In this document: positions 9,290-32,886 of the stretch, in pieces
How positions within the stretch are numbered: the first letter of the stretch is position 1
Layout of the letters: the number at the start of each line of letters is the position of its first letter
Source of the DNA: Dissulfurispiraceae bacterium
GTDB lineage: Bacteria; Nitrospirota; Thermodesulfovibrionia; Thermodesulfovibrionales; Dissulfurispiraceae
Length of the DNA stretch: 45,430 bases
Direction of reading: 5' to 3'
NCBI GenBank assembly: GCA_050011415.1
Contig: JBEKJD010000001.1
Coordinates: 1 to 45,430 of the forward strand
Notes under the pieces: model-generated
Told to the model about the DNA's origin: nothing
The model's database searches: none
What the model saw: the letters and a program-made list of their open reading frames with translations, nothing else
Made by a program: the position numbers and the translations under genes

Positions 9290-10954
9290 CTAAGCTGCCC
9301 TGACATCCTCACAGCAGTTGTCACCCAGGATCGTCCTTAAATCTTCCTCGGGCGTGTCCGCGATCGGTTTTATGTCAAAATTCTTTACGAGGACGTCAAG
9401 AACATTGGGTGTGATAAACGCCGGAAGCGTGGGGCCAAGGCGGATGTCCTTAATGCCCAGGTGCAAAAGAGTCAAGAGTATGGCCACGGCCTTCTGTTCA
9501 TACCATGAAAGGACAAGGGAAAGTGGTAGTTCATTCACCCCAACATTAAAGGCCTTGGCTAACGCAAGCGCTATCTGGACTGCAGAGTATGCGTCATTAC
9601 ACTGGCCTATGTCCAGCAGCCTCGGTATGCCGCCTATGTCGCCCAGGTCCTTGTCGAAGAAACGGAATTTGCCACAGGCAAGAGTCAGGATAACCGTGTC
9701 CTTTGGCGCTTTTTCCACAAATTCCGTGTAGTAGTTCCTGCCGGGCTTTGCCCCGTCGCAACCGCCCACGAGGAAGAAGTGGCGAATATTTCCGGACTTG
9801 ACAGCCTCGACCACTTTTCCCGCAACACCCAAAACAGCATTTCTGGCAAACCCGGTCATAACCTCTTTGCCCGGCGCATCTCCATCAAATCCCGGAAGCG
9901 AAAGGGCCCTTTCTATAACAGGTGCAAAATTGCCGTCTGAAACATGAGGGATATCAGGCCAGCCCACAAGTCCACATGTAAAGATGTTGGCCTTGTATGA
10001 ATCAAGAGGCTTTTGGAGGCAGTTGGTGGTCATCAGGATTGCGCCTGGGAAATGAGCAAACTCCTTGTGTTGGTTCTGCCATGCGGTCCCGAAGTGGCCG
10101 TAGAAGTGGGGATACTTCTTCAGTTCGGGATATCCGTGCGCGGGCAACATCTCGCCGTGGGTGTAGATGTTTATCCCCTTTCCCTCCGTCTGTTTCAGAA
10201 GGTCGAAAAGATCTTTAAGGTCATGGCCTGAAATCAGGATTGCCTTGCCATTCCTGTGACCAAGCGGAACATTTGTCGGGACTGGATTACCGTAGGTCCC
10301 GGTGTTTCCCGCATCCAGAAGTTCCATGGTCTTGAGGTTTATTTCTCCACATTTAAGCACAAGCCCAATCCAATCGTTTAGGCTAAGTTCGGTCTTTGTC
10401 ATGTCTGCCAGGGCTTCACTCATAAATGCATAGACCGCATCGTCGGTTTTTCCGAGGATCTGAGCATGATCTGCATAGGCGGCCACACCTTTTAAGCCGA
10501 AGAGCAGGATGTCCTGAAGCGACTGTATATCAGGGCTGATCGCAACATCGGGCACTTTTTCGACAACCTTTCTCCCCTGCTTTGCCAACTCATCGATTGA
10601 ATCCGCAGGCTTAAATGATGCGCTGCCGTGCGTGAAGTCTGTTTTGCCGCCTGCAGCCTTGACCCTTACCTTGAGAGCCTCGCGAAGACCAACGCACTTG
10701 TTGATCAATCGTTCGAACGGTTCGGGGTCGAAGTTCACGTTAGTGAGTGTAGAAAAAAGCCCTTTGGTTATAAATATGTTTACTTCACGATCAACTACGC
10801 CCACCTTTCTTCCTTCAACTGCCTGCAATGAAAGACCTTTCATTGCATAGATCAAAAGATCCTGCAATGCCGACAACTCCGGGTCCTTTCCGCATACTCC
10901 CATCTTGGTGCAACCCTTTCCCTGCGCTGCTTGCTCACACTGATAACAAAACAT
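9290..10954 (-). CDS. hcp: hybrid cluster protein (hydroxylamine reductase / NO reductase Hcp)
   Basis: N-terminal MFCYQCEQAAQGKGCTKMGVCGK Cys motif. Length is about 554 aa from the internal ATG at 10954, which has a perfect AGGAGG 5 nt upstream. The 21 extra codons in the ORF track have no SD. Confidence 0.93.
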   Translation of the reverse strand: MFCYQCEQAAQGKGCTKMGVCGKDPELSALQDLLIYAMKGLSLQAVEGRKVGVVDREVNIFITKGLFSTLTNVNFDPEPFERLINKCVGLREALKVRVKAAGGKTDFTHGSASFKPADSIDELAKQGRKVVEKVPDVAISPDIQSLQDILLFGLKGVAAYADHAQILGKTDDAVYAFMSEALADMTKTELSLNDWIGLVLKCGEINLKTMELLDAGNTGTYGNPVPTNVPLGHRNGKAILISGHDLKDLFDLLKQTEGKGINIYTHGEMLPAHGYPELKKYPHFYGHFGTAWQNQHKEFAHFPGAILMTTNCLQKPLDSYKANIFTCGLVGWPDIPHVSDGNFAPVIERALSLPGFDGDAPGKEVMTGFARNAVLGVAGKVVEAVKSGNIRHFFLVGGCDGAKPGRNYYTEFVEKAPKDTVILTLACGKFRFFDKDLGDIGGIPRLLDIGQCNDAYSAVQIALALAKAFNVGVNELPLSLVLSWYEQKAVAILLTLLHLGIKDIRLGPTLPAFITPNVLDVLVKNFDIKPIADTPEEDLRTILGDNCCEDVRAA

Positions 10955-11060
10955 GAATACCTCCTGAAGTTTATTTGTCCGGCCTGAAATTCCAAGTACA
11001 CGCCAAGGTATACTCAATTTGCGGCTTTAATTAAGTTTACAATTATAAGTTTAAAGTTGG

Positions 11061-11076
11061 TATGACGCAGGTCATA
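11061..11076. promoter_or_regulatory. 16-bp dyad TATGACGCAGGTCATA (CRP/FNR-box-like), copy 1, upstream of hcp
   Basis: Perfect inverted repeat TATGAC-N4-GTCATA. In the hcp direction it is followed by 21 nt and then TAAACT (11039-11034). The centre is about 114 bp upstream of the hcp ATG. Confidence 0.6.
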
Positions 11077-11150
11077 TTTACCGGAAAGTCAGCAAAATTG
11101 CATCGAGATATTAATGTCCTGTTCCTAACAGTTCTTTACATTATTTTGTC

Positions 11151-11218
11151 GTCATTCCGGGCTTGACCCGGAATCCAGTTCCCTGATTTTTCTGGATTCC
11201 CGCCTTCGCGGGAATGAC
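11151..11218. repeat. REP/MITE-like nested palindromic element
   Basis: Two inverted copies of a roughly 29-nt palindromic unit. ATTCCGGG/CCCGGAAT lies at 11154-11174 and ATTCCCGC/GCGGGAAT at 11196-11215. They are bracketed by GGAATCCAG/CTGGATTCC and GTCATTCC/GGAATGAC. This is the sequence type seen as dispersed intergenic repeats in many environmental bacteria. Confidence 0.6.
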
Positions 11219-11344
11219 AAGACATGCAAACTTACATCTGAGACACCACACTAATATATGATTAACATCATACAACTTCATTAGCCGCTGTTGTTATAGT
11301 ATGGTATCCGGCATGCAGCGGATAAATATCAAGGGAGGCCTCAA

Positions 11345-11962
11345 ATGGACGATACAACAGAAAAGAAGGATATTCCCCTGGAGATAGAAATATCGGATGA
11401 TGATATTTTTGAGGCTATGAAGGATATCCAGGGCTATCTGGACATCACTCCTGCCGATCTGAAAGAGATTTACAAGTTTGCCTATCGTCACGCTTACGAC
11501 AGAATTATGAAGTCGGTCCGGGCCCGCGACATCATGACAAGGGAAGTTTTTTCAGTTAGAAGATCGACCCCCTTAAAGGAAGTTGCCGAAGTGATGGCTG
11601 CCAGGGGAGTTTCCGGGGTGCCTGTTCTTGAAGATGACGGAAGAATAGCAGGGGTCATTTCAGGAAAGGACTTTCTGGCAAATATGGGCGCCAAAGACAA
11701 AAAGAATTTTATGGCTGTTGTTGCAGAGTGTCTTAAAGGCGAGGGATGTATCACAATGCCGATCCGCTGTAAAAAAGCTGAAGACCTTATGACATCTCCG
11801 GCTATAGCCGTTGACGAAAACACAATGGTAACGGAGATAGCCGCCATTTTCTCTGCAAAAAAAATAAACAGGGTCCCTGTTACGGATAAGAATGGGGCGC
11901 TCATCGGCATTGTTACGAGAACTGACATTGTGCATAGCTCTACGGTCAGGCTCAGGACCTGA
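11345..11962 (+). CDS. CBS-pair domain protein
   Basis: Two CBS motifs (ARDIMTREVFSVRRSTPLKEVAEVMAARGVSGVPVLEDDGRIAGVISGKDFL, and AEDLMTSPAIAVDENTMVTEIAAIFSAKKINRVPVTDKNGALIGIVTRTDIV). SD GGGAGG. 5 nt upstream of the HPP gene. Confidence 0.8.
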   Translation: MDDTTEKKDIPLEIEISDDDIFEAMKDIQGYLDITPADLKEIYKFAYRHAYDRIMKSVRARDIMTREVFSVRRSTPLKEVAEVMAARGVSGVPVLEDDGRIAGVISGKDFLANMGAKDKKNFMAVVAECLKGEGCITMPIRCKKAEDLMTSPAIAVDENTMVTEIAAIFSAKKINRVPVTDKNGALIGIVTRTDIVHSSTVRLRT

Positions 11963-11967
11963 CTGGA

Positions 11968-12525
11968 ATGCCACCGCTCAACATGATCATGGAATATCTG
12001 CAAAAGATGAAGGGTTCGACGAAGAGCCCGCCTGCAGTCGGCCTCTCTGAAGTCCTATGGTCCTGGATAGGTGCTTTTCTGGGCATAGCGACAGTTGCCC
12101 TGATCAGTTACAAGCTTTTGGAAAGCACAGGATTTACCCTGATAATAGGCTCTTTCGGCGCTTCCGCAGTATTGATCTATGGCGCTATAAAGAGTCCTCT
12201 GGCACAACCGCGCAATCTTATCGGCGGGCATGTTCTTTCTGCTCTTGTCGGCGTCACCTCCTGGCAGATGTTCAGTAGCCAAATGTGGCTTGCCGCTCCT
12301 TTGGCAGTTGCAACAGCTATAGCCGTAATGCATACAACAAAAACACTGCATCCACCTGGTGGAGCAACAGCGCTCATAGCTGTTATAGGGGGTGAGAGCG
12401 TTCACAAGCTCGGATATTTATATGTTATTCTTCCAGCAGGTGCAGGCGCATTGATTATGCTCCTGGTCGCTCTTTTGGTAAATAATATACCTAAAACCAG
12501 AAGGTATCCTGAATTCTGGTTCTGA
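11968..12525 (+). CDS. HPP family membrane protein
   Basis: Four to five TM segments and the eponymous motif TKTLHPPGGATALIAV. Confidence 0.85.
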   Translation: MPPLNMIMEYLQKMKGSTKSPPAVGLSEVLWSWIGAFLGIATVALISYKLLESTGFTLIIGSFGASAVLIYGAIKSPLAQPRNLIGGHVLSALVGVTSWQMFSSQMWLAAPLAVATAIAVMHTTKTLHPPGGATALIAVIGGESVHKLGYLYVILPAGAGALIMLLVALLVNNIPKTRRYPEFWF

Positions 12526-12563
12526 TGGCTATGATCGTTTTTGACAGGAAAGGATAGAATCTG

Positions 12564-13211
12564 ATGATAATCCAATCGCTCAATGTCGGACTTCCGGCCA
12601 AAGAGATATTTTTTGGTAAAGAGGTCATAACGGGCATCTGTAAAAAACCTGTTATGGGCCCCGTGCACCTCACGAAGACCGGTTTTGCCGGTAACGGAGT
12701 TGCTGACTTGAAACACCACGGGGGACTTGATAAAGCGGTTTGTGTGTATGGCGCCAATCATTATCCTTACTGGGAGGAAGTACTTAAAAGGATCTTGCCT
12801 GCGGCTGCTTTTGGCGAGAACCTTTCACTTTCCAACGTTGATGAGGCTGAAGTATGCATAGGCGATATTTTTCAGCTGGGGACTTCAGTCGTTCAGGTAA
12901 GCCAGCCCCGTCAGCCGTGCTCAACCCTTGCGGCGAGGTATGGCAGGAGCGATATGGTGAAGCTTGTTGTCGATTCCGGAAGAACCGGGTACTATTTCAG
13001 GGTGCTCGAAGAGGGGATTGTGGAAACCGGAAATGCTCTTATTCTCAAGGAAATGGATCGTAACGGTATAACCGTTTCTTTCGCCAATCGGATATACCAT
13101 CATGACAGGAAAAACCGTGAGGGAATAGAAAAGGTTTTAGCAATTGAGTCTCTCTCAGAATCGTGGCGCGAATCATTTATTAAATTGAGAGAGGATTCCT
13201 GCCATCATTAA
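12564..13211 (+). CDS. MOSC domain protein (YiiM-like)
   Basis: The beta-barrel MOSC core has GENLSLSNVDEAEVCIGDIFQLGTSVVQVSQPRQPCSTLAARYG (conserved Cys), followed by a C-terminal helical domain as in YiiM. Confidence 0.85.
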   Translation: MIIQSLNVGLPAKEIFFGKEVITGICKKPVMGPVHLTKTGFAGNGVADLKHHGGLDKAVCVYGANHYPYWEEVLKRILPAAAFGENLSLSNVDEAEVCIGDIFQLGTSVVQVSQPRQPCSTLAARYGRSDMVKLVVDSGRTGYYFRVLEEGIVETGNALILKEMDRNGITVSFANRIYHHDRKNREGIEKVLAIESLSESWRESFIKLREDSCHH

Positions 13212-13239
13212 AAGCTTATATTTTCTAACAGTAAAATCT

Positions 13240-13286
13240 GTCAGGCTATAGGGAATCATATATTTCCTATAGCCTGACCCTTTTCT
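13240..13286. terminator. bidirectional rho-independent terminator (MOSC gene / cupin gene)
   Basis: Perfect 13-bp stem GTCAGGCTATAGG (13240-13252) / CCTATAGCCTGAC (13266-13278). CTTTTCT follows on the + strand. AAAATC precedes it, which gives a T-run on the - strand. Confidence 0.85.
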
Positions 13287-13287
13287 A

Positions 13288-13602
13288 CTATTCGACCGGC
13301 GTTACCACTGCCATCACTACCAGTTTTTCACCTTTATTTGCCTCAAATCCATGCTGCACCATTGGATCGCAGAGAATGCATGTTTTTTCATCAGCCTCTA
13401 TGCTCTCATCACCGACCGTAAAAGTACCTTTCCCCTCGACGCAGTACATGAGAAGCCTGATCGGAGCCTTATGCGGCTCAAGCTTTTGTCCTTTATCAAG
13501 ACACATCAAGGCTATACGCATTTCAGGTTTATCGGAAAGCATCTCCCTTGAAATCTTGCCGCTATCAAATTTTATCAACTGCTTGAGATTGAGCACTTCC
13601 AT
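13288..13602 (-). CDS. cupin domain protein
   Basis: 104 aa. Small beta-barrel pattern with PHKAPIRLLMYCVEGKGTFTVGDE...HGFEANKGEKLVVMAVV. SD GGGAGGA. Confidence 0.6.
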   Translation of the reverse strand: MEVLNLKQLIKFDSGKISREMLSDKPEMRIALMCLDKGQKLEPHKAPIRLLMYCVEGKGTFTVGDESIEADEKTCILCDPMVQHGFEANKGEKLVVMAVVTPVE

Positions 13603-13724
13603 AGTATCCTCCCTTATTCATTAGTATAGAGTCCATCTTTCCAACTTACTGCTTGACGCGGACTTCTCTGACCTCAACTTTTGAGGTTGACAAAGGTATA
13701 AAAAATTTGATCGGTCTGTAACAG

Positions 13725-13979
13725 TTAAGTATTCTGGTTTTGCTCTCGCAGTTTTTTCATCAGCCGTTCATACTTCTCTGCACCGACGCATTCCTTGGCA
13801 GCCGGACACCACTCAATGCATGAGGGTACCATGTCCCGAGTTATTGTTTTTCCACACCCTTTGCAGTTCATCTCAGGCTCATCTGTCCATATTTCATTTT
13901 TTTGGGTGCAAAAGGCACAAATCAATTCTTCCGGGTACGGATTCCTTATCTCCCTGCTTCCTGGGCAACTCTCTTTCAT
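13725..13979 (-). CDS. 8-cysteine miniprotein (two CxxC knuckles + CxxxC-x5-C), unknown function
   Basis: 84 aa. Cys at positions 5, 21, 24, 39, 42, 54, 58 and 64 (CAFC, CKGC, CIEWCPAAKEC). No SD. A -10-like TAAACT ends 7 nt before the ATG, suggesting a leaderless mRNA, and dyad copy 2 lies 21 nt further upstream. Confidence 0.6.
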   Translation of the reverse strand: MKESCPGSREIRNPYPEELICAFCTQKNEIWTDEPEMNCKGCGKTITRDMVPSCIEWCPAAKECVGAEKYERLMKKLREQNQNT

Positions 13980-14013
13980 AATTCTTAGTTTAGCACCATA
14001 TCACACACGACGC

Positions 14014-14029
14014 TATGATTCAGGTCATA
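14014..14029. promoter_or_regulatory. 16-bp dyad TATGATTCAGGTCATA, copy 2, between the divergent Cys-rich gene and DUF438 gene
   Basis: TATGAT-N4-GTCATA. 21 nt away on the minus side is TAAACT (13992-13987). 21 nt away on the plus side is TAAAAT (14051-14056). Confidence 0.6.
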
Positions 14030-14241
14030 AAAAGATAAAATATTAGTTGGTAAAATAGAAGATGATTGTAGGGCATATGTTTCAGAGCAAATGACGCCGG
14101 AGGAAAAAGCACTTATGGACATGACTGCTCTACCAGTGACTGGACACCCGGCAGCGTCTGATCTTGGTGGATTGCATTAAATGAATGTATACTTTCAGTA
14201 ATGGGCCAACGTTAATCAGGTAAATAAAAAAGGAGATTGCC

Positions 14242-15669
14242 ATGGAACTATCCGCCTCAACCAAGATCGCCGATCTGTTGACAAAATATCCATTTTTAAA
14301 AGAGCTTCTCATAAATTTCGACCCGCACTTCAATGCGCTTAACAACCCTGTTATTATGAGGACCCTCGGCCGTATTGCGACAATGAGCAAAGTCTCTTTC
14401 ATGACAGGCGTCTCGCTCAAACAGTTATTCCCCTTCATTGTCGCTGAAGTGAAGAACAGAACAGGCGAAACGCTTATCGTAAAACTTAATGAGCCTGAAG
14501 GTCAGTCCGATGAGTCGACCCAGCGGCTTGAAACCCTGAAAGGGATTATCAAGGATCTGCACAAAGGCGGCGACAAGCAACTCCTTACCGAGCGCTTCAA
14601 CGAACTCATCAAAGACGTTGCACCATGGGAAATAGCGAACATGGAGCAGCAGTTAATGGCGGAAGGTATGCCGCAGGAGGAGATAAAAAGACTCTGCGAC
14701 GTCCATGTTGAGGTATTCAAAAAATCTCTTGATAGGAAGGTCGTCCCAGGTTTGCCTGCCGGCCATCCCGTGCATACCTTAATGCTCGAAAACAGGGCCG
14801 CTGAAGATATCATGAAAGAGATTGAAGCGGTCGGCGGCATACAGGACGACGGGAAGCGGCTGTCAGCTCTTTTTGAACGGCTGTCGGAACTTGATGTCCA
14901 CTACATAAGAAAAGAAAACCAGCTTTTCCCCATTCTCGAGTCAAAGGGGATATCGGGTCCGTCGAAGGTCATGTGGTCGCTCCACGACGATATCCGCGCA
15001 ATGCTGAAGGATGTGAAGGCAAAGATTCGATCTGGCAGCGTCAAGGAAGTCGAGATAAAAGCCGTACTATATATGATCAACGACATGATCTATAAGGAAG
15101 AGCATATATTCTTCCCAATGGCGCTAGAATCACTTACCGAAGAAGATTGGGGACGGGTCCGGGATGGAGAAGATGAAGTGGGCTACGCCTGGGTAAAGCC
15201 GGAGAGCACCTGGCAGCCATCGTCACGCGCTATGAGCGTAGAGCGCATGATCGAAAATATAGGACGTATAAATCTCGATACTGGACTTCTTACCATTGAG
15301 CAGATAAATCTTATTCTCACCAATCTGCCCCTGGATATATCATTTGTGAACGAACAGGATGAGGTCATCTATTACTCTCAGACTCCTGAGAGGATATTTC
15401 CCAGGAGTCCCGGCATTATCGGCAGGAAAGTACAGAACTGCCATCCTCCGAAAAGCGTTGATACAGTTGAAAGAATACTCGAAGCTTTTAAGGCGGGGAC
15501 ACGGGACGTTGCGGATTTCTGGATTCAAATGAAAGGCCGTTTTCTGCATATCCGGTACTTTGCCGTGAGGGATAAGGAGGGAAAGTATAAAGGAACGCTT
15601 GAAGTAAGTCAGGATGTGACTGAAATCAGGAATCTCGAAGGCCAGAAACGTCTTTTAGACTGGAATTGA
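14242..15669 (+). CDS. DUF1858 / DUF438 / hemerythrin-like / PAS multidomain protein
   Basis: The N-terminus is IADLLTKYPFLKELLINFDPHFNALNNPVIMRTLGRIATM (DUF1858-like). The central part has hemerythrin-type His/Glu helices (HPVHTLMLENRAAEDI, HYIRKENQLFP, HDDIRAML, YKEEHIFFP). The C-terminal PAS-like part has FVNEQDEVIYYS...VQNCHPPKS...YFAVRDKEGKYKGTLEVSQDVT. Strong SD AAGGAGA. Confidence 0.8.
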   Translation: MELSASTKIADLLTKYPFLKELLINFDPHFNALNNPVIMRTLGRIATMSKVSFMTGVSLKQLFPFIVAEVKNRTGETLIVKLNEPEGQSDESTQRLETLKGIIKDLHKGGDKQLLTERFNELIKDVAPWEIANMEQQLMAEGMPQEEIKRLCDVHVEVFKKSLDRKVVPGLPAGHPVHTLMLENRAAEDIMKEIEAVGGIQDDGKRLSALFERLSELDVHYIRKENQLFPILESKGISGPSKVMWSLHDDIRAMLKDVKAKIRSGSVKEVEIKAVLYMINDMIYKEEHIFFPMALESLTEEDWGRVRDGEDEVGYAWVKPESTWQPSSRAMSVERMIENIGRINLDTGLLTIEQINLILTNLPLDISFVNEQDEVIYYSQTPERIFPRSPGIIGRKVQNCHPPKSVDTVERILEAFKAGTRDVADFWIQMKGRFLHIRYFAVRDKEGKYKGTLEVSQDVTEIRNLEGQKRLLDWN

Positions 15670-15690
15670 TTATATTCATCACCTGTTTTC

Positions 15691-15706
15691 TATGACATAC
15701 ATCATA
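15691..15706. promoter_or_regulatory. 16-bp dyad TATGACATACATCATA, copy 3, upstream of the micro-ORF
   Basis: TATGAC-N4-ATCATA, followed on the + strand by 20 nt and then TATATG. It sits immediately upstream of the TTGCAA-17-TAATAT promoter. Confidence 0.55.
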
Positions 15707-15710
15707 TTTT

Positions 15711-15739
15711 TTGCAATGCATTACATTATATGATAATAT
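15711..15739 (+). promoter_or_regulatory. sigma-70-type promoter for the micro-ORF
   Basis: -35 TTGCAA (15711-15716), 17-nt spacer, -10 TAATAT (15734-15739). Confidence 0.55.
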
Positions 15740-15821
15740 TAGTTCGGCTGGGTGTAATTGCCCGATACGTCGCAGCTTTGCTGCGGGCTATTTATTAAAA
15801 ACATTTTAAAGGAGATTAACC

Positions 15822-15914
15822 ATGGACATATCGGTTATAGCAACCATCGGCTTTACCTCTCTTGCAATCGTCGGGATACTTATCCTCTTGGTGAGGACCG
15901 GCAAAAAGACATAA
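15822..15914 (+). CDS. 30-aa single-TM micro-protein (MDISVIATIGFTSLAIVGILILLVRTGKKT)
   Basis: Not in the ORF track because it is too short. ATG at 15822 is preceded by AAAGGAGA with 7-nt spacing, nearly the same RBS context as the DUF438 gene. It has a hydrophobic core followed by a basic RTGKKT tail, its own promoter and a dyad upstream. TAA at 15912-15914. Confidence 0.45.
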   Translation: MDISVIATIGFTSLAIVGILILLVRTGKKT

Positions 15915-16011
15915 TCCAGGATAGCAGATTTTTTGGCGAAAACCAGCGCAGGGAACGGACATTTTTATTTTAGCGATAAGGGTACTTTTTTATTCGGTAT
16001 TAAAGTGTCAC

Positions 16012-16497
16012 TCAAATTCTATTTCCCGATCTGATAAAATCCTCGAACGCCTCTGCGCATCGGCCATAAATATTTGAATGTTCCCTGACTCCTGAAGTAA
16101 AGTCGAAAACCCATTCCTTCATCCTTTCGAGAAAAATCGCATCATTGGTGAGTGCAAGGAACTCCAACTCCGCGCTGAAAAGATCGGGCGGCTCGCCTTC
16201 ATAGCCGAAGTGCAGCCCGTGTTTCTCATACAACTCCCGGACCTCAACAGATGCGTTGCCGTATACTACACCCTCCCGATAGTAAGACTCGTAGGGCGGA
16301 CAGAGAAGACGCGGGAACGCTGAGATGAAAAGCCTTGTGTATTCTGCCTGCATATCTTCGAGGGACATGCTCTTCAGCTCCCCCTCGCACAACGGACCGG
16401 AAAAATCAGCGGTCCTGGATATCTCTCCAAGCTCCTGCAGCGTATCCTCTGTCGGGTACGAAAAAACGAGGGAGAAGTAACGGAAGAGGTCCATCAT
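16012..16497 (-). CDS. TorD/NarJ/DmsD-family molybdoenzyme maturation chaperone
   Basis: 161 aa. AEYTRLFISAFPRLLCPPYESYYREG...PPDLFSAELEFLALT matches the redox-enzyme-maturation-protein pattern. The start overlaps the NrfD-like stop (ATGATG). Confidence 0.75.
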   Translation of the reverse strand: MMDLFRYFSLVFSYPTEDTLQELGEISRTADFSGPLCEGELKSMSLEDMQAEYTRLFISAFPRLLCPPYESYYREGVVYGNASVEVRELYEKHGLHFGYEGEPPDLFSAELEFLALTNDAIFLERMKEWVFDFTSGVREHSNIYGRCAEAFEDFIRSGNRI

Positions 16498-17765
16498 TGG
16501 CCGGCCTCCTTCACCGGTAATATCTCGACCAGCTTCAGGAAAGCCAGCACGAGGAACGCCATCACCCCGGCAGTGATCAGAAGTTCAACAATGGAGGGGA
16601 AATAGCTGTAGTACGAAGAAAAGACATTCTGCGGATTACCCAGGGTCCCTTTTATCTGGCCGACAGCTATCGGATAGCTCCACTCCACGGTCTCGCTGAG
16701 GAAGACAACGGGCACCTTCAGCGGCATGTTGTTATAAGCCGGCGGCAAGAGAAGTAAGCGGTGTGCGAACACGCCTATGATCACGGACAGGCTTCCCTGT
16801 ATCAATCTCTTTTTGTCCATCGGATATTTGACGAAGAGATAGACCGACAAGAGGATAAAGACAATCTCAACAGCGTGGAGCAGTGGATACCTGGTGAAAA
16901 CAAGCTTAAGGGCCTCGAAATCCTTACCAGTGTTCCACCAGAAACGTATCACAAAATCGTTGCCGTAGATGAAGAGCATGATGAGGGCAGCGACAGACGA
17001 AACCTTGGCGAGGAGAGCATAGGTGGCCTTAAGCTTCTCGCTGTAGCCGAAGACAAAGAGGGACGCGAGGATTACAACGGCAGGGCCCGTAGCAAGGGCA
17101 GCTGCAATAAAGGTAGGCGCGAGCGTGCCCCCGTACCACCACGGCCTGGCCATTTGCGTGGCGAGGACCCATGCAGTTACGGTATGAATAAGAATGGCGA
17201 GGGGCAGCGCAATGGGAGCCAGGAGCTTAGCCCTTTTGCCGGAATCTTCCCTGAGCTTCGCCATCTCATCAGGCGTCACCTCTTTTTTCCCCACGATGCC
17301 GTAAAACGGCAGTTTAACGCCGTTGGCAACGATGTCCGGGTACATGAGGGTGTACGTGTACAGAGCAGAAACGACCGCATACGCGGAAAGCACCAGAAAG
17401 TCCCACGGCAGCATGGATTTGAAATTCGGATGGAGGACCATGTTGTAAAGCCTGTCAGGCCTGCCGATATCAGGCAGAAGGATGCCCATCGCTCCCATTG
17501 CAAAAAGAAAAGCTGTAAGGGCCGCAACCCTGGCGATCGGCTTCAACTGTTTGGCATCGAAGATATAGATAGCGGAGGAGACGACAAGTCCTCCGGCAGC
17601 CGTGCCCACAAAAAATGCCCACGTGGCCACATACAATCCCCATGAAAAGGGGTTCCTCATATTCGTAGCTATCAGGCCGCTGTAGAGCTGGTACATCCAG
17701 GCGATAAGCCCCAATACCGCTACCGCGGTTAGACCCTTAAGTATATTATTATAGTTTTTTCCCAT
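16494..17765 (-). CDS. NrfD/PsrC-family polytopic membrane subunit (quinone-interacting anchor)
   Basis: 423 aa with about 10 hydrophobic segments. The NrfD-like start is LYSGLIATNMRNPFSWGLYVATWAFFVGTAAGG. Overlaps the FeS gene by 17 nt. Confidence 0.8.
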   Translation of the reverse strand: MGKNYNNILKGLTAVAVLGLIAWMYQLYSGLIATNMRNPFSWGLYVATWAFFVGTAAGGLVVSSAIYIFDAKQLKPIARVAALTAFLFAMGAMGILLPDIGRPDRLYNMVLHPNFKSMLPWDFLVLSAYAVVSALYTYTLMYPDIVANGVKLPFYGIVGKKEVTPDEMAKLREDSGKRAKLLAPIALPLAILIHTVTAWVLATQMARPWWYGGTLAPTFIAAALATGPAVVILASLFVFGYSEKLKATYALLAKVSSVAALIMLFIYGNDFVIRFWWNTGKDFEALKLVFTRYPLLHAVEIVFILLSVYLFVKYPMDKKRLIQGSLSVIIGVFAHRLLLLPPAYNNMPLKVPVVFLSETVEWSYPIAVGQIKGTLGNPQNVFSSYYSYFPSIVELLITAGVMAFLVLAFLKLVEILPVKEAGQ

Positions 17766-18498
17766 AGTTTATACCTCCCTTTCCTTCTTTCCTCGCGGGC
17801 GGAATGTAGAAAACCTTTGGATCGGTCCCCAGATCAGCCATCAGCTTGAACACATCCCGTGCGCGAATAATCTTCGAGACCTCGCTGTTGGGATCGTTCA
17901 GGTCTCCGAAAGTCCTGGCATTCCCCGGACAGCCGCGTACACAGGCGGGAAAAAGTCCCTGGTCAATATACTGAACACAGAAAGTACATTTTTCGACTAC
18001 GCCTTTAGGCCTCTTCGGGGCAAAGACGAGCCTGCCGTCCTTTGTCCTATGTTCAAGAGGATAGCCGTAGCGGTAGTCCTTTACCTTGAACCAATCCTCT
18101 TCAAAACCCGCATTCCTGAATCCCTCTCTGAAGCTGTCGTCCGCATCCTGCCAGTTGAACTGACGCACGCCATAAGGACAGGCTGTCATACAGTAGCGGC
18201 AGCCGATGCAGCGTTCGTAATCGACAAGCACGATACCGTCTTCTCTCTGCCAGGTGGCCCCTACAGGGCAGACCTTGACGCAGGGCGCCTTTTCGCAGTG
18301 CTGGCACGGGACGGGAAGATAGACCTCCGACAACTCCGGATATTCACCGGCTGGGATCATATGTTCCTTTGACCCCGTTGTCTCGACCCTTTGCCACCAT
18401 GTTCCGGGCGGAAGCGAATTATGTATCTTGCAGACAACAGCGCAACTTCTGCAGCCGATACAGCGGTTGAGATCAATGACCATTCCTAATTTACGCAT
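17749..18498 (-). CDS. four-cluster [4Fe-4S] electron-transfer subunit (PsrB/NrfC/DmsB type)
   Basis: Four ferredoxin motifs: CIGCRSCAVVC, CQHCEKAPCVKVCP, CIGCRYCMTACP and CTFCVQYIDQGLFPACVRGCP. Only 249 aa. Overlaps the catalytic subunit gene by 8 nt. Confidence 0.93.
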   Translation of the reverse strand: MRKLGMVIDLNRCIGCRSCAVVCKIHNSLPPGTWWQRVETTGSKEHMIPAGEYPELSEVYLPVPCQHCEKAPCVKVCPVGATWQREDGIVLVDYERCIGCRYCMTACPYGVRQFNWQDADDSFREGFRNAGFEEDWFKVKDYRYGYPLEHRTKDGRLVFAPKRPKGVVEKCTFCVQYIDQGLFPACVRGCPGNARTFGDLNDPNSEVSKIIRARDVFKLMADLGTDPKVFYIPPARKEGKGGINYGKKL

Positions 18499-21199
18499 TC
18501 TCCACCCCCTCAGCCTTTTTCACATCGCACACGCACTCGTTCCAGGCAGTTGTGGGCTCCCAAATCCCCGGGGTGAAATAGATGAGATGCGCCGCTTTGA
18601 TCCATGGATACGTCAGCGAATTGTATGATGTCCCCTTCAGGTACTTGCTCCACCAGCCCTCTTCAAAAACTGCCACACGGTAATGGAGACCGGGGTCGAG
18701 GACAGCATACGCGTAGACCTTGCCCCTCGCATTGAATGCCTCGACAAGATCACCCTCTTTAATGTTCCGTTCAACAGCCGCCTTCGTATTGATAAATACC
18801 TTAGGTTTGAAATCCTGAAGTTCAAGAAGACTGATATTATTACTGTGCGTGGAATGCACCCGGTAAAGAGAGTTCCTGGTGATCAGGGCAAACTTGTATT
18901 TGTCCTTTGCCCCTGCAGCCTTGTGCTCGGTATCGATGAAAGGGTCTTTATGCACAGGCAATGTCTCGCCCGTATCTATGAAGACATCCTCATCTTTGTA
19001 GTACTCTATTCTTCCGCTCTTCACAAAACGCGCTGTCTTGGGCAACGGCACAGGATAGGATACGGGCGGGAACGGTTTCATGCTCTGGATCTGCTCATAG
19101 AACATGAACTGACGTTTGTTGGGAGTGGGCAGGTTCATCCTCACCGGCCCCTGTTTGAGCATATCAACGGTAATATCCTGCACCTGCGGTCCGCCCGTCT
19201 TCAGCATCAGCGCTGCCGCGTCGAGGCTCGCCTGCTGTGCGATCTCCCTCGCAAGCTTGAGTGTCCATGTGCCGTTTTTCCTCGCATCCTCTTCTTTCCT
19301 GAACAAGTCGGGATTACTATAGAAATCCGCAATGCTGTCCTGCATTTCCTTGTTGCCTGTCTTTATTGCCAGCCTCTTTGCGATCTCCTTAAAAATCCAT
19401 ATCTCAGGCATGCACTGGAAGAGGGGCTCGATCGCAGGCTGCTGCAACTGGACGTACGGATGGGCGACGGTGGCGGTGAGTTCGTATTTCTCATACCATG
19501 CCACACCAGGCAGCACAACGTCCGACCAGAGGCAGGAAGTGCTCATCTGAAAGTCTGTCGTGACAATCAGCTCCATTTCGCCTTTTGCCGCTTTCTCCCT
19601 CATCCTGTCTGCCATGTTGTGCTGATCAAAGGGATTGCCCCAGCCGTAGATAAAGGCCTTGACCCCATTCCCGGGATGGGGGATTTCAGTGTTGTATTTT
19701 TTAAATTCCTCGCTGTTCCGGTACTCGTCATTCATCCAGAGGAGGTAGTTGAGCCATTTGTTCTTCTTGTCCTTAAAGCCCCACCATGCTCCCAGCGGCC
19801 AGCGGACACGATACTGACCTGCATAGGTAGAGATACCGGCGCCGGGTTTTCCCAGATTGCCGGTAAGGGTAACAATAAGAGAGAGCGCCCTTCCCTTGAG
19901 GTCACCGTGGTACCACTGGTAATTACTCGCCCCGTAAACGATATGAAGCGGCTTCGCAACGGCCATTTCCCTGCCGAGCCTGATAATCATTTCAGTATAC
20001 TCGCCGACCCTCGATTCCTCCGGCGCTATCATGCGCGCCGCTTTTTCAGGAGTGTAATCCTTATTAATGAGTTCCGTAAGAAGCTGGAAGACCGGCTTCA
20101 CCTTCACCTTCGTGCCGTCGGCAAGAGCAACATCGAACTCGCCTTCAAGAGCAGGATCGAATTCCCTCTTAAGGTTTTCAGGGTCGGGGATAGCAAAACT
20201 TTTCGTCTTGTTATTGTAGACCACAAAGAGGTCGCGGTATTCCGGTATCCTGGCTTTCATCCCGGCTGCGGAGCCTGCAAGAGACCTCACCTCGGAAGCC
20301 CGGAGTTTTTTATTGTTGTCCATGCGCACCAGAAGAGGCATGTCGGTGAATGTTTTGATGAATTCTTCGTCGTAAAGCTTCTCATTGAGAATAACGTTTA
20401 CTATACCAAGGGCAAAAGCTGCATCAGAAGATGAATTGATCTGAACCCATTCATCAGCCTTGGCAGCGGTGGGGCTATAATTGGGATCGACGACAACGAG
20501 CTTGCCTCCCTTTTCCCTGCTTATATTCAGGAACTTGGCATCCGGCACTCGTGTAACCATGACATTGGAGCCAAGAACTACGGTATATTTCGAATTGGTC
20601 CATTCAAGCGATTCGAGTTCTTCGGTCTGCACACCAAAGGTCATCGGCCAGAAAGCAGGCAAGTCCCCGTTCATTGTATATGCATGGATCATGCTCCAGT
20701 CATACATCGAAGCAAGACGCATCAGCGCTCCCTTGTGCACGTACCCTGTTCCGGGGACCTGAATGTTGCCTGCAACAGACTCGGGGCCGTATTTCTTCAT
20801 GATATCCGCAAGCTTGTCCCCGACATAATCGAGGGCCTCGTCCCAGCTGACCGCCCGGAATTTACCCTCTCCCCTCTTGCCGACCCTGATGAGAGGCTGC
20901 TTGAGCCGGTCCGGCCCGTAAATCAGGTTGAGCATCGACTGTCCCTTCAGGCATCCCCTGGGATTGTATTCTTTTTCAGGATAATCGGCAGCCTGCACAA
21001 GAGAGGCAATCCTGCCTTTGTAGACCATGGCATTGAAACCGCATGCGCCGGTGCAATTAGGCGAGCAGGTAGACCTCACATACTTCAGCAGCGAAATATC
21101 ATCCTCCGCCGAATGAGCGAGTTGGAAATAACGGGAACCGGCCACCGCTGCAGTGGCGACAGCGCAAATCTTCATAAAGTCTCTTCGCGTAATATCCAT
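18491..21199 (-). CDS. Tat-exported molybdopterin (bis-MGD) oxidoreductase catalytic subunit with NarG-type FS0 spacing and Asp-ligand segment
   Basis: Twin-arginine signal MDITRRDFMKICAVATAAVAGS. FS0 motif STCSPNCTGACGF (C-x3-C-x3-C). MNGDLPAFWPMTFGVQTEELESLEW...GSNVMVTRVPDAKF aligns by eye with E. coli NarG CDLPPASPQTWGEQTD...GSNVPQTRTPDAHF. Length is 902 aa. SD AGGAGG. Confidence 0.9.
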   Translation of the reverse strand: MDITRRDFMKICAVATAAVAGSRYFQLAHSAEDDISLLKYVRSTCSPNCTGACGFNAMVYKGRIASLVQAADYPEKEYNPRGCLKGQSMLNLIYGPDRLKQPLIRVGKRGEGKFRAVSWDEALDYVGDKLADIMKKYGPESVAGNIQVPGTGYVHKGALMRLASMYDWSMIHAYTMNGDLPAFWPMTFGVQTEELESLEWTNSKYTVVLGSNVMVTRVPDAKFLNISREKGGKLVVVDPNYSPTAAKADEWVQINSSSDAAFALGIVNVILNEKLYDEEFIKTFTDMPLLVRMDNNKKLRASEVRSLAGSAAGMKARIPEYRDLFVVYNNKTKSFAIPDPENLKREFDPALEGEFDVALADGTKVKVKPVFQLLTELINKDYTPEKAARMIAPEESRVGEYTEMIIRLGREMAVAKPLHIVYGASNYQWYHGDLKGRALSLIVTLTGNLGKPGAGISTYAGQYRVRWPLGAWWGFKDKKNKWLNYLLWMNDEYRNSEEFKKYNTEIPHPGNGVKAFIYGWGNPFDQHNMADRMREKAAKGEMELIVTTDFQMSTSCLWSDVVLPGVAWYEKYELTATVAHPYVQLQQPAIEPLFQCMPEIWIFKEIAKRLAIKTGNKEMQDSIADFYSNPDLFRKEEDARKNGTWTLKLAREIAQQASLDAAALMLKTGGPQVQDITVDMLKQGPVRMNLPTPNKRQFMFYEQIQSMKPFPPVSYPVPLPKTARFVKSGRIEYYKDEDVFIDTGETLPVHKDPFIDTEHKAAGAKDKYKFALITRNSLYRVHSTHSNNISLLELQDFKPKVFINTKAAVERNIKEGDLVEAFNARGKVYAYAVLDPGLHYRVAVFEEGWWSKYLKGTSYNSLTYPWIKAAHLIYFTPGIWEPTTAWNECVCDVKKAEGVENA

Positions 21200-21243
21200 A
21201 AACTACCTCCTGTCCATTGGTTGCAACGCCTGTTTTCTCTATC

Positions 21244-22590
21244 CTATTTTGCGTTTGCTCCGCCGTATCTCTCGTCATAAAACTTTTTTATCTTCTCGAG
21301 CTGTTCCTTGCTCATCCCTTTGAGATACCATTCGTGCCGCACATCCGGCTCCAGATACTTCTTCATGAGTTCGTTGTATAGCTCAGGGCCGGCCACGTTT
21401 TTTACCTCGGGCAGGAATTCCGAGTAGAAGTTTTTTGCAACATCATAGATACCGTGCCACCACGCATAATCAGGACCGGACATGGCTGCACCGTGGCGTG
21501 CGCGTCTTCCCTCGTGATGCCAAAGCTCAAAGTAAATCCAGTCAAGCTTGCTGTCAAAATCCGATTTGGATATTTTGCCCTTCGCCTTGAGTTCGTTTCT
21601 TATATTGGTTGCGGGGACCGCAAATTTTTCGTCATAGAAATTCACGAGGTTGTCGAACTGATTATAGAAACCCTCCACATATGGGGCCGAATGGCAGCTG
21701 TAGCATACATCTTTCATGTTCTGGCGGCGTTTATCTGCATTTTCGAGTTTCTTCGATATCGGCGGTCTGAGCGTCCAGCTGATTCTCGCCCCTACATCAT
21801 GGGTTACAGGCAGGTTCGGCGTTGCGCCCATGTGGCAGGTCGCGCATGTCGGGGCAGCGGTGTAGTCTTTTCCTACGACCCAGGAATCCTTGTGCATATT
21901 CATCCGTTTTTTGTTAGCTTCATAGAGAATGCCGTGCTTCGATTCCTGATATATCTCCATCTGCGGATGGTCCGGACCGAGATGGCATTTGCCGCAGGTC
22001 TGGGGTTCCCTCGCCTGGGCCTTTGAAAAGTTATGCCTTGTATGGCAGGCTGAACAGGAACCTTTTGAACCGTCCGGGTTGATACGTCCGATGCCGGTGT
22101 TGGGCCAACTGTCAGTATCGAGTTTTCCGTTAGCCAGCACCTTTACTTTTCCCCCGTGACACTGCAGGCAGCCGACTGCAACCGCCTCCCGCCCGCCAAC
22201 TACCTCACCAAGGTAATTGTCCAGTGAATTAAGGATATCTCCAGCCATGGCATGGTGGCTTGTTGTCATCTCCCGGACTTCATTAGGATGGCACTTTGAA
22301 CAACGCTTGGGTGTGACAAGCACTGCTATAGTAAAGCCGTTATGGTCCATTGCATCGGGGTCTGATTTCTCAGCCTTGTGACAACTATAGCAGTCAACCT
22401 GCTTTCCAGCATGCCTGCTTATTTCCCATTCCTTCACCAATGACGGTGATTGCGCATTGTGACATCCTATGCATGCCTGACCTTCATTGGAAACTTTGAT
22501 TTTAGCTGCTTCTCCTGTCCCCTCGCCCGCAACGATCATCATACAAAAAAGTATAAGGGCCGTTGTCCATAAGAATGTTTTCCGCTTCAT
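21244..22590 (-). CDS. exported octaheme cytochrome c, hydroxylamine oxidoreductase (HAO/epsilon-Hao-like) family
   Basis: Signal peptide MKRKTFLWTTALILFCMMIVAG. There are exactly eight CxxCH motifs (CIGCH, CYSCH, CSKCH, CLQCH, CSACH, CGKCH, CATCH, CYSCH). The HAO-like segments are LGPDHPQMEIYQESKHG and WHHEGRRARHGAAMSGPDYAWWHG. SD AAGGAGG. Confidence 0.88.
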   Translation of the reverse strand: MKRKTFLWTTALILFCMMIVAGEGTGEAAKIKVSNEGQACIGCHNAQSPSLVKEWEISRHAGKQVDCYSCHKAEKSDPDAMDHNGFTIAVLVTPKRCSKCHPNEVREMTTSHHAMAGDILNSLDNYLGEVVGGREAVAVGCLQCHGGKVKVLANGKLDTDSWPNTGIGRINPDGSKGSCSACHTRHNFSKAQAREPQTCGKCHLGPDHPQMEIYQESKHGILYEANKKRMNMHKDSWVVGKDYTAAPTCATCHMGATPNLPVTHDVGARISWTLRPPISKKLENADKRRQNMKDVCYSCHSAPYVEGFYNQFDNLVNFYDEKFAVPATNIRNELKAKGKISKSDFDSKLDWIYFELWHHEGRRARHGAAMSGPDYAWWHGIYDVAKNFYSEFLPEVKNVAGPELYNELMKKYLEPDVRHEWYLKGMSKEQLEKIKKFYDERYGGANAK

Positions 22591-22814
22591 AAAGCCTCCT
22601 TTTCTAACGATATTTGTCGAATTTTGAGTCTATATTTCATGCGCCCCGTTCAAAGGGAAAATTGTCAAATATTGGCATATCCTACAAAATTGTATCCCTG
22701 AAATAGATAAATGTATAGTAAATATCAGCCGTTTATTCTGTTCACAGGTTATGACTTCCCGGCTAGGCACAACGTTTTCATTGTCATATCATAAGAGTTG
22801 TCGCTAAATTTGAG

Positions 22815-22830
22815 TATGATTTGTATCATA
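22815..22830. promoter_or_regulatory. 16-bp dyad TATGATTTGTATCATA, copy 4, upstream of the octaheme/molybdoenzyme operon
   Basis: Perfect TATGAT-N4-ATCATA. In the operon direction it is followed by 21 nt and then TATGAT (22793-22788). This implies a 5' UTR of about 190 nt. Confidence 0.6.
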
Positions 22831-31620: not shown

Positions 31621-31768
31621 GGGCTCGCAATATGAACGGTATCAAATAGAACCTATCTCAAAATTGTTTTAGTCGGATGCATATTGATGCTAACTGTACA
31701 TACCCCTTACTTTTGTTTTTTTGCATTTGGGATAAAGCTTCTACCCGAAAAAAATACAGTGCTCGTGA

Positions 31769-32713
31769 CTATGCCGGCTCTCTATTAGCCATTTGACGCA
31801 AATTCGTAATGTCTCGCAAGGGAGGTGCTCCGAATAAACGGCTGTACTCTCGGCTGAATTGGGATGGGCTTTCGTAGCCAACCTGAAATGCTGCGGTTGT
31901 CGCATCGTTATTTTCGGTGAGCATCAACCGCCGCGCTTCGTTCAAACGCAACATTTTTTGAAACTGCAACGGGCTCATGGCTGTCAGAGTTCGGAAATGA
32001 TGGTGAAAGGTCGAAGTGCTCATATTGACTTGAGTTGCCAGATCATCGATTCGCAGCGGCACTGTGAAGTTACCCTTTAGCCAATCTATTGCCTGTCCTA
32101 TCTGGTGACTCTGACTACCTGCCGAAGCAATCTGACGCAGACGTGCACCTTGATCACCTACAAGTAAACGGTAAATGATTTCCCGCTGGATGATCGGCGC
32201 AAGGATCGGAATGTCCTTCTGTTCAGCGAGTAAGTCGATCAACCTCTCAAAGGCAGTGAGCAGTGGTAACATGACCTCGCCGGTTGCCATTCCACGGCTT
32301 GATTGTTGAGCCGGTAGCGCGGGAAGATTGCTGTCCACCATTAATTGTGCAATCTCGCGTTTATCAAGTTTCAACCTGAGCCCCAGGTAAGGCTTCTCCC
32401 GACTGGCTTTGATAATCTGCACAACCGTGGGAAGATGCACAGAAGTGATCAAATAATGGTGCGCGTCATACACATACGTGTCATCTCCAAGCAGCACGCG
32501 CTTAGCCCCTTGCGCGACCAAGCAAATGCTCGGTTCGTACATGACGCTTATCGGCTCGGTGGGTTCGGCCCGCCGGAAAAGTGACAAGCCCGGTATTGCG
32601 GTTACGTGCTGCTCGCCTTTATCAGTCCATCGGGCAATGCTATTACCAAAAGATTTGAGCGCAACTTCCATGCTGTTATTCTCAAACACCTTATTTATGG
32701 GTTGCTTATTCAT
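31769..32713 (-). CDS. AraC-family transcriptional regulator (AraC_N-type sensor domain + HTH)
   Basis: The C-terminus has LATQVNMSTSTFHHHFRTLTAMSPLQFQKMLRLNEARRLM...VGYESPSQFSREYSRLFGAPP. The start is uncertain (ATG at 32713, or GTG/ATG at 32764). Confidence 0.85.
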   Translation of the reverse strand: MNKQPINKVFENNSMEVALKSFGNSIARWTDKGEQHVTAIPGLSLFRRAEPTEPISVMYEPSICLVAQGAKRVLLGDDTYVYDAHHYLITSVHLPTVVQIIKASREKPYLGLRLKLDKREIAQLMVDSNLPALPAQQSSRGMATGEVMLPLLTAFERLIDLLAEQKDIPILAPIIQREIIYRLLVGDQGARLRQIASAGSQSHQIGQAIDWLKGNFTVPLRIDDLATQVNMSTSTFHHHFRTLTAMSPLQFQKMLRLNEARRLMLTENNDATTAAFQVGYESPSQFSREYSRLFGAPPLRDITNLRQMANREPA

Positions 32714-32886
32714 TAATGCCTTCTCTTTTGATATTACCAGACAGCACTTCGCTTTACAACTCATTTATCAAAAGATCGTAGGATTAGGCAATAAATGAGC
32801 AGGATTGGTCTACCTGCTTTTGTTCTTTCGGAATTACAATAGAAATATCAACAGGGTTGCAAATAGATGTGAGCAAACTCTACTGA

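Follow-up and report, generated by a model that had tools for sequence, protein, structure and literature searches.

Do the gene for hybrid cluster protein (hcp) and an operon for an octaheme cytochrome c and a molybdenum (Mo) enzyme, both carried on one 45,430-bp stretch of a Dissulfurispiraceae genome, answer to the same regulator? The question arises from a 16-bp dyad, TATGAY-N4-RTCATA, which a first-pass annotation made from the sequence alone had found in the promoters of both and had read as a CRP/FNR-type class II box linking them. Here we follow this dyad through the whole stretch (contig JBEKJD010000001.1, positions 1 to 45,430; hereafter the window) and through the corresponding loci of other genomes. 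The proposed link is supported by conservation of the dyad upstream of orthologous genes, by a peak at 21 nucleotides (nt) in its distance to -10 hexamers and by CRP/FNR-family genes that adjoin it in relatives. We put the probability at about 0.78 that the dyads are class II operator sites of an HcpR-like CRP/FNR activator and that they define a regulon for nitrogen-oxide stress and nitrite ammonification.

Distribution of the dyad in the window

A search of the whole window for the 16-bp pattern TATGAYNNNNRTCATA (TATGAY-N4-RTCATA) returned five exact dyads, starting at 11061, 11257, 14014, 15691 and 22815. The expectation is 0.01 per window, and none of 100 dinucleotide-preserving shuffles reached five. 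The first-pass annotation had listed four copies; all four are exact and lie where it placed them, but the copy at 11257-11272 had been overlooked. All five are in promoter regions. Dyad 1 (TATGACGCAGGTCATA, 11061-11076) is the predicted activator site of the hcp promoter, dyad 5 (TATGATTAACATCATA, 11257-11272) the predicted site in the promoter of a CBS-HPP-YiiM operon and dyad 4 (TATGATTTGTATCATA, 22815-22830) the predicted site in the promoter of the octaheme/Mo operon. Dyad 2 (TATGATTCAGGTCATA, 14014-14029) stands between the gene for an 84-residue protein with eight cysteines and a DUF438-hemerythrin gene, and has -10-like hexamers at 21 nt on each side. Dyad 3 (TATGACATACATCATA, 15691-15706) precedes a 30-codon open reading frame (ORF).

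The window contains no dyad with a single mismatch. Copies with two mismatches number 12 and are either coding or situated between convergent gene ends; the intergenic ones at 31631 and 40575 fall into the second class and were rejected for that reason.

Promoter geometry

Each dyad is followed by a -10-like hexamer at a nearly constant distance. Towards hcp, TAAACT (11034-11039, minus strand) lies 21 nt from dyad 1, and towards the CBS-HPP-YiiM operon TATAGT (11295-11300, plus strand) lies 22 nt from dyad 5. Dyad 2 has TAAACT (13987-13992, minus strand) at 21 nt on the side of the 84-residue gene, and TAAAAT (14051-14056, plus strand) at 21 nt on the side of the DUF438 gene, where the leader would be about 180 nt. 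From dyad 4, TATGAT (22788-22793, minus strand) is again 21 nt away, with a predicted leader of about 190 nt. All hexamers quoted in the first-pass annotation were recovered on reading the sequence, with the same coordinates and spacings. For dyad 3 these include TATATG at 20 nt, although TATGAT at 22 nt (15729-15734, plus strand) is the better match.

Pooling 32 non-identical exact dyads in both directions (64 directions) sharpens this picture. A TAnnnT hexamer occurs at an offset of 21 nt in 25/64 directions, at 22 nt in 7 and at 20 nt in 4, compared with about 1.5 at other offsets. We aligned 46 oriented promoters, in which positions 2-5 and 12-15 are invariant through the search pattern itself. 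Position 1 is T in 41/46 and position 16 is A in 38/46, the 4-nt centre is variable, and beyond the 16 bp there is no conservation of either flanks or spacer. Moreover, the -35 region is poor, matching TTGACA at 0-3 of six positions in 44 of the 46 promoters, and a sigma-70 consensus scan reports no dyad promoter.

On the minus side of dyad 2, 7 nt with no ribosome-binding site separate the end of the TAAACT hexamer from the ATG of the Cys-rich 84-residue gene. The same order of box, 20-22 nt, TAnnnT, 6 nt and ATG is found in 4/5 Cys-rich orthologues examined (L057, L167, L169 and L170; L numbers denote loci). Because the hexamer sits 6-7 nt before the ATG, these genes are predicted to be leaderless or nearly so, and this layout ties the hexamers to real -10 elements and would put the start some 41.5 bp away from the centre of the dyad. 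Activators of the CRP/FNR family in class II position are centred at about -41.5 from the transcription start. Judged from the hexamers and the leaderless ATGs, the dyad would occupy this class II position.

Conservation upstream of orthologous genes

We compared 80 hcp loci from species-representative genomes, the closest of which are Nitrospirota metagenome-assembled genomes (MAGs). The hcp genes of the four closest Nitrospirota (L003-L006; Hcp 79-90% identical) and of a Thermodesulfovibrio (L076) have an exact dyad a short way upstream, and that of L057 has a version flanked by C and G, CATGATCCATATCATG. In these six promoters exactly 21 unrelated nt separate the dyad from a TAnnnT hexamer, the hexamers being TAAACT, TATACT, TAGTAT, TAATAT, TAAAAT and TAAGCT. 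Octaheme orthologues (69-89% identity) were collected from metagenomes as 80 loci, 74 of them with enough upstream sequence; about 18 of the 74 have a dyad within 400 bp upstream of the start codon, with a hexamer at 21±1 nt. Three cupin orthologues (83-84% identity; L089, L093 and L094) have their own dyad, followed by 21 nt and TATACT, and Cys-rich orthologues preceded by a dyad, exact or with 1-2 mismatches, were found in L057, L167, L168 and L169. Dyad and spacing are thus kept upstream of the orthologous hcp, cupin and Cys-rich genes of these loci and of this share of the octaheme genes; at DUF438 promoters they are not (see below).

All fetched DNA together (2.16 Mb) contains 36 non-redundant dyads, against an expectation of 0.5. 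Twenty-six of the 36 fall outside ORFs of 120 codons or more, though such DNA makes up only 16% of the sequence (P = 6e-14); the ORF mask, covering the other 84% of bases, is crude and over-calls coding sequence. Within the fetched DNA the dyad is biased towards intergenic positions.

Could the dyads nevertheless lack a regulatory role and be a chance feature, or one derived from a repeat, for instance the end of a mobile element or a structural hairpin? It speaks for this that the intergenic regions are rich in AT (34-41% GC, while the window as a whole has 49%) and that a short inverted-repeat-bearing element lies between dyads 1 and 5. Against it stand the failure of every shuffle to reach five copies, the preservation of 16 bp and not of their flanks, and a dyad that keeps its spacing upstream of orthologous genes in differing genomic contexts. 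A chance or repeat origin is effectively refuted.

Two further palindrome contexts emerged from the fetched loci. In two loci (L095, 2622-2846; L104, dyad at 4370) a NifU-like gene for 74 residues and an exact dyad are 84 bp apart, with no TAnnnT at 20-22 nt from either dyad; the gene may be an additional, Fe-S repair-related member of the regulon. In L165 a second palindrome with a 5-nt spacer (TATGAC-AACGC-GTCATA, 11236-11260) stands beside the regular dyad at 11220.

A candidate regulator in related genomes

Genes of the CRP/FNR family adjoin dyads in four independent relatives. In L097/L098/L107 the regulator gene is followed by two dyads, predicted to drive a COX1-fragment gene and a DUF1858 gene, and a third dyad with TAAAAT at 21 nt stands before NorC/NorB-like genes. 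In L163/L164 the order is regulator, COX1-fragment gene, dyad and, directly after, DUF1858; L165/L166 has the same first three elements with DUF1858 further downstream. L163 also carries an octaheme gene and a Mo enzyme of 1116 residues. Lastly, in L076 a single bidirectional dyad separates divergent hcp and nrfH-nrfA (cytochrome c552, 1.4e-140), with TAAAAT and TATAAT exactly 21 nt off, one per side, and the regulator gene follows. Together with the NifU-like genes, the relatives thus add nrfHA, a NorCB-like oxidase and DUF1858 genes to the targets.

The COX1-fragment gene encodes a membrane protein of 135-137 residues whose sole match is to a fragment of subunit I of haem-copper oxidase, Pfam COX1 (L098, 4317-4724; L163, 10675-11085; L165, 10746-11159). 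It is always tail-to-tail with the regulator gene, has a predicted dyad promoter and is not found in the window.

The candidate regulators form a subfamily of 223 residues with cNMP-binding and HTH_Crp_2 domains, for which NCBIfam returned no specific model. Over their full length the L098 and L076 proteins share 49% identity with each other; to Desulfobacterota HcpR1 proteins their identity is 23-34%, and to CRP and FNR 22-26%. At least 120 database clusters share at least 69% identity with the L098 protein; they are named just "Crp/Fnr family transcriptional regulator", come from Nitrospirae or Thermodesulfovibrionales MAGs, and all have an invariant GTTVETSIR. Aligned over the recognition helix, the candidates read VETSIR, or TETAIR in Thermodesulfovibrio, where CRP has RETVGR, FNR has VETISR and HcpR1 has PET[I/L]SR. 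They keep Glu-181 and Arg-185, and Ile replaces the Ser next to that Arg. In specificity-swap work on FNR and CRP, this Ser is said to contact the outer T of TTGAT. If so, the Ser-to-Ile exchange fits the change of half-site from TTGAY to ATGAY, and the two substitutions may be linked as amino acid and base.

We propose the following mechanism. A homodimeric CRP/FNR-family activator, encoded outside the window, would bind the five dyads, whose centres would be some 41.5-42.5 bp before the transcription starts, in class II position. The bound dimer would replace the missing -35 element and recruit RNA polymerase, and would activate rather than repress. It would turn on hcp, the CBS-HPP-YiiM operon, the 84-residue Cys-rich gene (predicted to be leaderless) with its cupin gene, and the HAO-like octaheme/Mo operon (HAO, hydroxylamine oxidoreductase); the DUF438-hemerythrin gene and the 30-codon ORF are probable further targets. 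From the content of the regulon, the likely signal is a nitrogen-oxide species, namely nitric oxide (NO), nitrite or hydroxylamine. The regulator of the source organism itself would most likely be an orthologue of the ETSIR (ETAIR) subfamily of Thermodesulfovibrionales/Nitrospirota described above.

A CRP/FNR-family activator at these sites might instead sense oxygen or redox state, carbon monoxide or a metabolite, and serve as a general switch for anaerobic respiration. The closest solved structures to the candidate regulator are indeed cyclic AMP-type CRPs, with Mycobacterium tuberculosis Crp entries at about 1e-26 followed at about 1e-23 by 4cyd, 4byy and 3r6s, which we take to be Corynebacterium glutamicum GlxR. 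The targets also include respiratory enzymes (the Mo enzyme, NrfHA and the haem-copper oxidase-like proteins) of kinds that are under FNR-type control elsewhere (PMC12285233). However, the L098 and L076 sequences lack the N-terminal Cys cluster of FNR, so the candidates are not FNR-type oxygen sensors. Moreover, hcp is the most conserved target, and the others are enzymes of nitrite, NO and hydroxylamine: the HAO-like octaheme, NrfHA, the NorCB-like oxidase and the YiiM-like hydroxylaminopurine reductase. It was target content of this kind that defined HcpR as a nitrogen-oxide regulator (PMC1274295). We consider a general respiratory switch unlikely.

Several observations count against an HcpR-like regulon with the proposed membership. 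About 55 of the 74 octaheme loci are without a dyad within 400 bp. Some of these octaheme genes are operon-internal (HPP-octaheme, L092 and L113) and others probably belong to other phyla; a look for other palindromes upstream of the dyad-less genes gave nothing consistent. L095, the only other locus with the same octaheme and Mo operon (the Mo-enzyme partner varies among octaheme loci), has a well-spaced dyad (CATGATGTCAATCATG, 21 nt, TAATAT), yet it lies about 950 bp upstream of the operon. None of five DUF438 orthologues (64-88% identity, five contexts examined) has a dyad directly upstream, and the promoter of one is simply of TTGACA type. At best, therefore, dyad 2 has a lineage-specific promoter on its plus side, and the TAAAAT that faces the DUF438 gene at 21 nt is not conserved. 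L173 has a dyad 1.6 kb upstream of the DUF438 gene, before a CopD-like gene, and L083 has a 60%-identical DUF438 homologue after two octaheme genes, downstream of a dyad. The 30-codon ORF has no homologues in the fetched loci beyond near-identical contigs, and the comparison lends no support to the suggestion that dyad 3 serves it.

Furthermore, as had been reported at first pass, the window has no CRP/FNR gene of its own according to Pfam (38 ORFs) and to phmmer with Escherichia coli CRP and FNR (ORFs of at least 120 codons). Finally, TTGAC-type boxes are found at orthologous promoters of related lineages, at hcp in L021 and at the Cys-rich gene in L170. Since related lineages use such boxes, the pairing of dyad and regulator is lineage-specific, and it is co-localisation that argues for it. 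Two other regulatory genes of the window, an AraC-family gene (31769-32764) and that of a sigma-54 response regulator (885-2240), were rejected as the regulator, having no link to the dyads.

Comparison with known boxes and regulators

Three HcpR consensus sequences have been described, wTGTGAn6TCACAw, wyTTGACn4GTCAArw and GTAACn4GTTAC (PMC1274295). None matches the window dyads, in which position 3 is A in all copies. The second belongs to HcpR1 of non-Desulfovibrio delta-proteobacteria and cyanobacteria (wyTTGACnnnnGTCAArw; Rodionov et al. 2005, PMC1274295). Among our hcp loci from Desulfobacterota, hcp usually has a CRP/FNR gene as its divergent neighbour, and the intergenic box, yTTGACyTAAGTCAAr, about 105-120 bp from the ATG, corresponds to the HcpR1 consensus. 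Like this box, the dyad is a CRP/FNR-type 5-4-5 palindrome with a TGA/TCA core, and hcp is its core target (in the window, L003-L006, L057 and L076); in both cases the regulator, here a candidate, is without the FNR Cys cluster, and the distance from box to -10 peaks at 21 nt. For 77 HcpR1-type TTGAY-N4-RTCAA boxes, taken from hcp loci that are mostly Desulfobacterota and framed as 16-mers, the offset of 21 occurs in 36/154 directions. As the two spacing profiles are equal, the window dyad is built and placed like an HcpR1 box. Unlike HcpR1 boxes, it has A and not T at half-site position 3 (ATGAY against TTGAC) and T/A outer flanks. The candidate helix, ETSIR or ETAIR, differs from PET[I/L]SR of HcpR1, in proteins of the low identity (23-34%) given above, and neither in the window nor in L003-L006 does the candidate gene adjoin hcp.

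The likeness to class II promoters of FNR and DNR (TTGATnnnnATCAA, centred at -41.5) lies in geometry and presumed mechanism, a dimer sitting over a weak -35 region. There too a single box can serve divergent promoters, as in L076 and at dyad 2 of the window, and DNR controls NO and nitrite reductase genes. By contrast, the outer half-site base differs, the candidate is without the Cys cluster for [4Fe-4S] that FNR has, and it is not a close homologue of DNR. The window contains no exact FNR-type TTGAY-N4-RTCAA box, and copies with one mismatch occur at chance level.

HcpR2 of Clostridia, Bacteroidetes and Thermotogales (GTAACnnnnGTTAC) likewise belongs to the CRP/FNR family and is devoted to hcp and nitrosative stress. 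HcpR of Porphyromonas gingivalis is described as a haem-dependent NO sensor (PMC12750200). The motif core of HcpR2, GTAAC, is wholly different from the dyad, and its position 181 is not Glu whereas that of the candidate is; the HcpR function has therefore arisen with several box specificities.

One further possibility is that the dyads are operators for a repressor of another family, for example an Rrf2/NsrR-like protein sensitive to nitrite or NO. Many bacteria have hcp and genes for NO detoxification under the control of NsrR, whose consensus, gATGyAT-N5-ATrCATc, has its outer ATG and CAT letters in common with the dyad (PMC1274295). However, the half-sites are spaced differently, ATG-N8-CAT in the dyad against ATG-N11-CAT, and the dyad promoters contain no NsrR-type site. 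NsrR is a repressor, and a dyad in the place of a poor -35 element, held rigidly at 21 nt from the -10, is a geometry that a repressor does not need and that HcpR1 boxes share. Moreover, an Rrf2 gene is neither present in the window nor recurrent near dyads, whereas CRP/FNR genes do recur. We regard such a repressor as very improbable.

For an HcpR-like activator, the general type of control is known, and it is the box variant with A at position 3 and the ETSIR subfamily that appear new. The content of the regulon, including the HAO-like octaheme and its type II dimethyl sulphoxide (DMSO) reductase partner, also appears undescribed, and our literature search found no paper naming HcpR together with Nitrospir*. 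We would go further only tentatively, at slightly less than even odds, in suggesting that the ETSIR-type proteins are a third, so far undescribed HcpR-like lineage, specific to Thermodesulfovibrionia-type Nitrospirota, in which Ile for Ser retargets the protein from TTGAY to ATGAY and insulates the regulon from coexisting boxes of FNR/HcpR1 type (L006, L021 and L170).

Canonical TTGAY-N4-RTCAA boxes do occur in Nitrospirota, at 15568 and 15948 in L006, beside an ATGAC-type dyad, at 9887 in L021 and at about 4845 in L170; two CRP/FNR box specificities may coexist in one genome. Separately, two Desulfobacteraceae (L036, 8373-9671; L041, 6956-8296) have hcp directly behind the gene for a 40%-identical octaheme homologue, both on one strand and separated by a TTGAC-type box. 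This is an independent genomic link between octaheme and hcp.

Genes of the window

Gene identities come from Pfam, NCBIfam and PDB sequence searches. The hcp gene (9290-10957, minus strand; Pfam Prismane, 9.5e-170) has GGAGG before its ATG at 10957. On the plus strand, the three-gene CBS-HPP-YiiM operon (11345-13211; Pfam and NCBIfam) encodes a CBS-pair protein (11345-11962; Pfam), an HPP-family membrane protein (11968-12525; Pfam), homologues of which lie directly upstream of the octaheme genes in L092 and L113, and a YiiM/MOSC protein resembling 6-hydroxyaminopurine reductase (12564-13211; NCBIfam PRK11536, 4.7e-40). The YiiM and cupin genes converge on a perfect hairpin with a 17-bp stem (13240-13278), which probably acts as a terminator in both directions and closes both operons.

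The region between dyads 1 and 5 holds a stretch of about 100 bp (11130-11235) with short GC-rich hairpins and inverted ends, GTCATTCC ... GGAATGAC. The region upstream of the orthologous hcp in L003 lacks it, and elsewhere only a 29-bp fragment matches (L131). This 106-bp insert has no second full copy in the window or the fetched loci, and a repeat search of the window at set thresholds reported nothing for it. A small repeat element may have inserted here.

On the minus strand, the 84-residue protein with eight Cys (13725-13979) is encoded upstream of the cupin gene (13288-13602). The protein has no Pfam or NCBIfam match. Its family comprises 146 database clusters (E <= 1e-5), whose named members are assigned to Thermodesulfovibrionales, Nitrospirae, Dissulfurispiraceae or Candidatus Magnetominusculus, with conflict among the source names. 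On the other side of dyad 2 lies the gene for a DUF1858-DUF438-hemerythrin-PAS protein (14242-15669, plus strand; Pfam). Its leader of about 180 nt contains a 29-codon ORF (14091-14180; MTPEEKALMDMTALPVTGHPAASDLGGLH) without an obvious ribosome-binding site.

The 30-codon ORF (15822-15914, plus strand) encodes a hydrophobic peptide, MDISVIATIGFTSLAIVGILILLVRTGKKT, has a GGAG ribosome-binding site and is called as a gene on L001 and L002. Its predicted leader, from dyad 3 to the ATG, includes a terminator-like hairpin (15770-15786; TCGCAGC-TTT-GCTGCGG) with a T-rich tail, which could be the DUF438 terminator or an attenuator.

The octaheme/Mo operon (16012-22590, minus strand) has five genes, the last four of which overlap, with a gap of 44 nt between the octaheme and Mo genes. 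The first gene encodes the HAO-family octaheme cytochrome c (21244-22590), with eight CxxCH motifs; its best PDB match is 4qo5 (1.4e-51), well ahead of HAO entries (about 1e-21). The Mo subunit (18491-21199) is predicted to be exported by the twin-arginine translocation (Tat) pathway, with an RRDFMK Tat motif, and belongs to the type II DMSO reductase family (Nar/Nxr/Ebd); its match to NCBIfam TIGR03479 (1.1e-152) is below the cut-off of the model. A 4Fe-4S subunit (17749-18498), an NrfD-type membrane anchor (16494-17765) and a NarJ-like chaperone (16012-16497), all identified by Pfam, complete the operon. An Rfam scan of the whole window, including the octaheme (about 190 nt) and DUF438 leaders, returned no families, and these long leaders thus match no known riboswitch.

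Significance

Thermodesulfovibrio-like Nitrospirota occur widely in anoxic soils, aquifers and sediments. To our knowledge, almost nothing is known of their gene regulation. A defined box and a candidate regulator give a handle on the genes that these bacteria deploy against nitrite, NO and hydroxylamine, among them an HAO-family octaheme with a Nar/Nxr-like molybdoenzyme, an HPP-family membrane protein, a YiiM-type reductase and an uncharacterised protein with eight Cys. The swap of one recognition-helix residue, set against the base preferred at half-site position 3, offers a natural test and would extend the co-evolution rule described for HcpR, DNR and NnrR.

A 2025 review of NrfA describes as unknown how the octaheme nitrite reductases that coexist with NrfA in ammonifiers fit in by regulation (PMC12285233). 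Here one type of box covers an HAO-family octaheme, a family that differs from the octaheme nitrite reductase of that review, together with nrfHA and hcp. If the ETSIR-type proteins are indeed a third HcpR-like lineage, the regulon would mark three further parts of a module for handling nitrite, hydroxylamine and NO in sulfate-reducer-like bacteria: the HAO-like octaheme with its type II DMSO reductase partner, the HPP/YiiM operon and the leaderless eight-Cys family.

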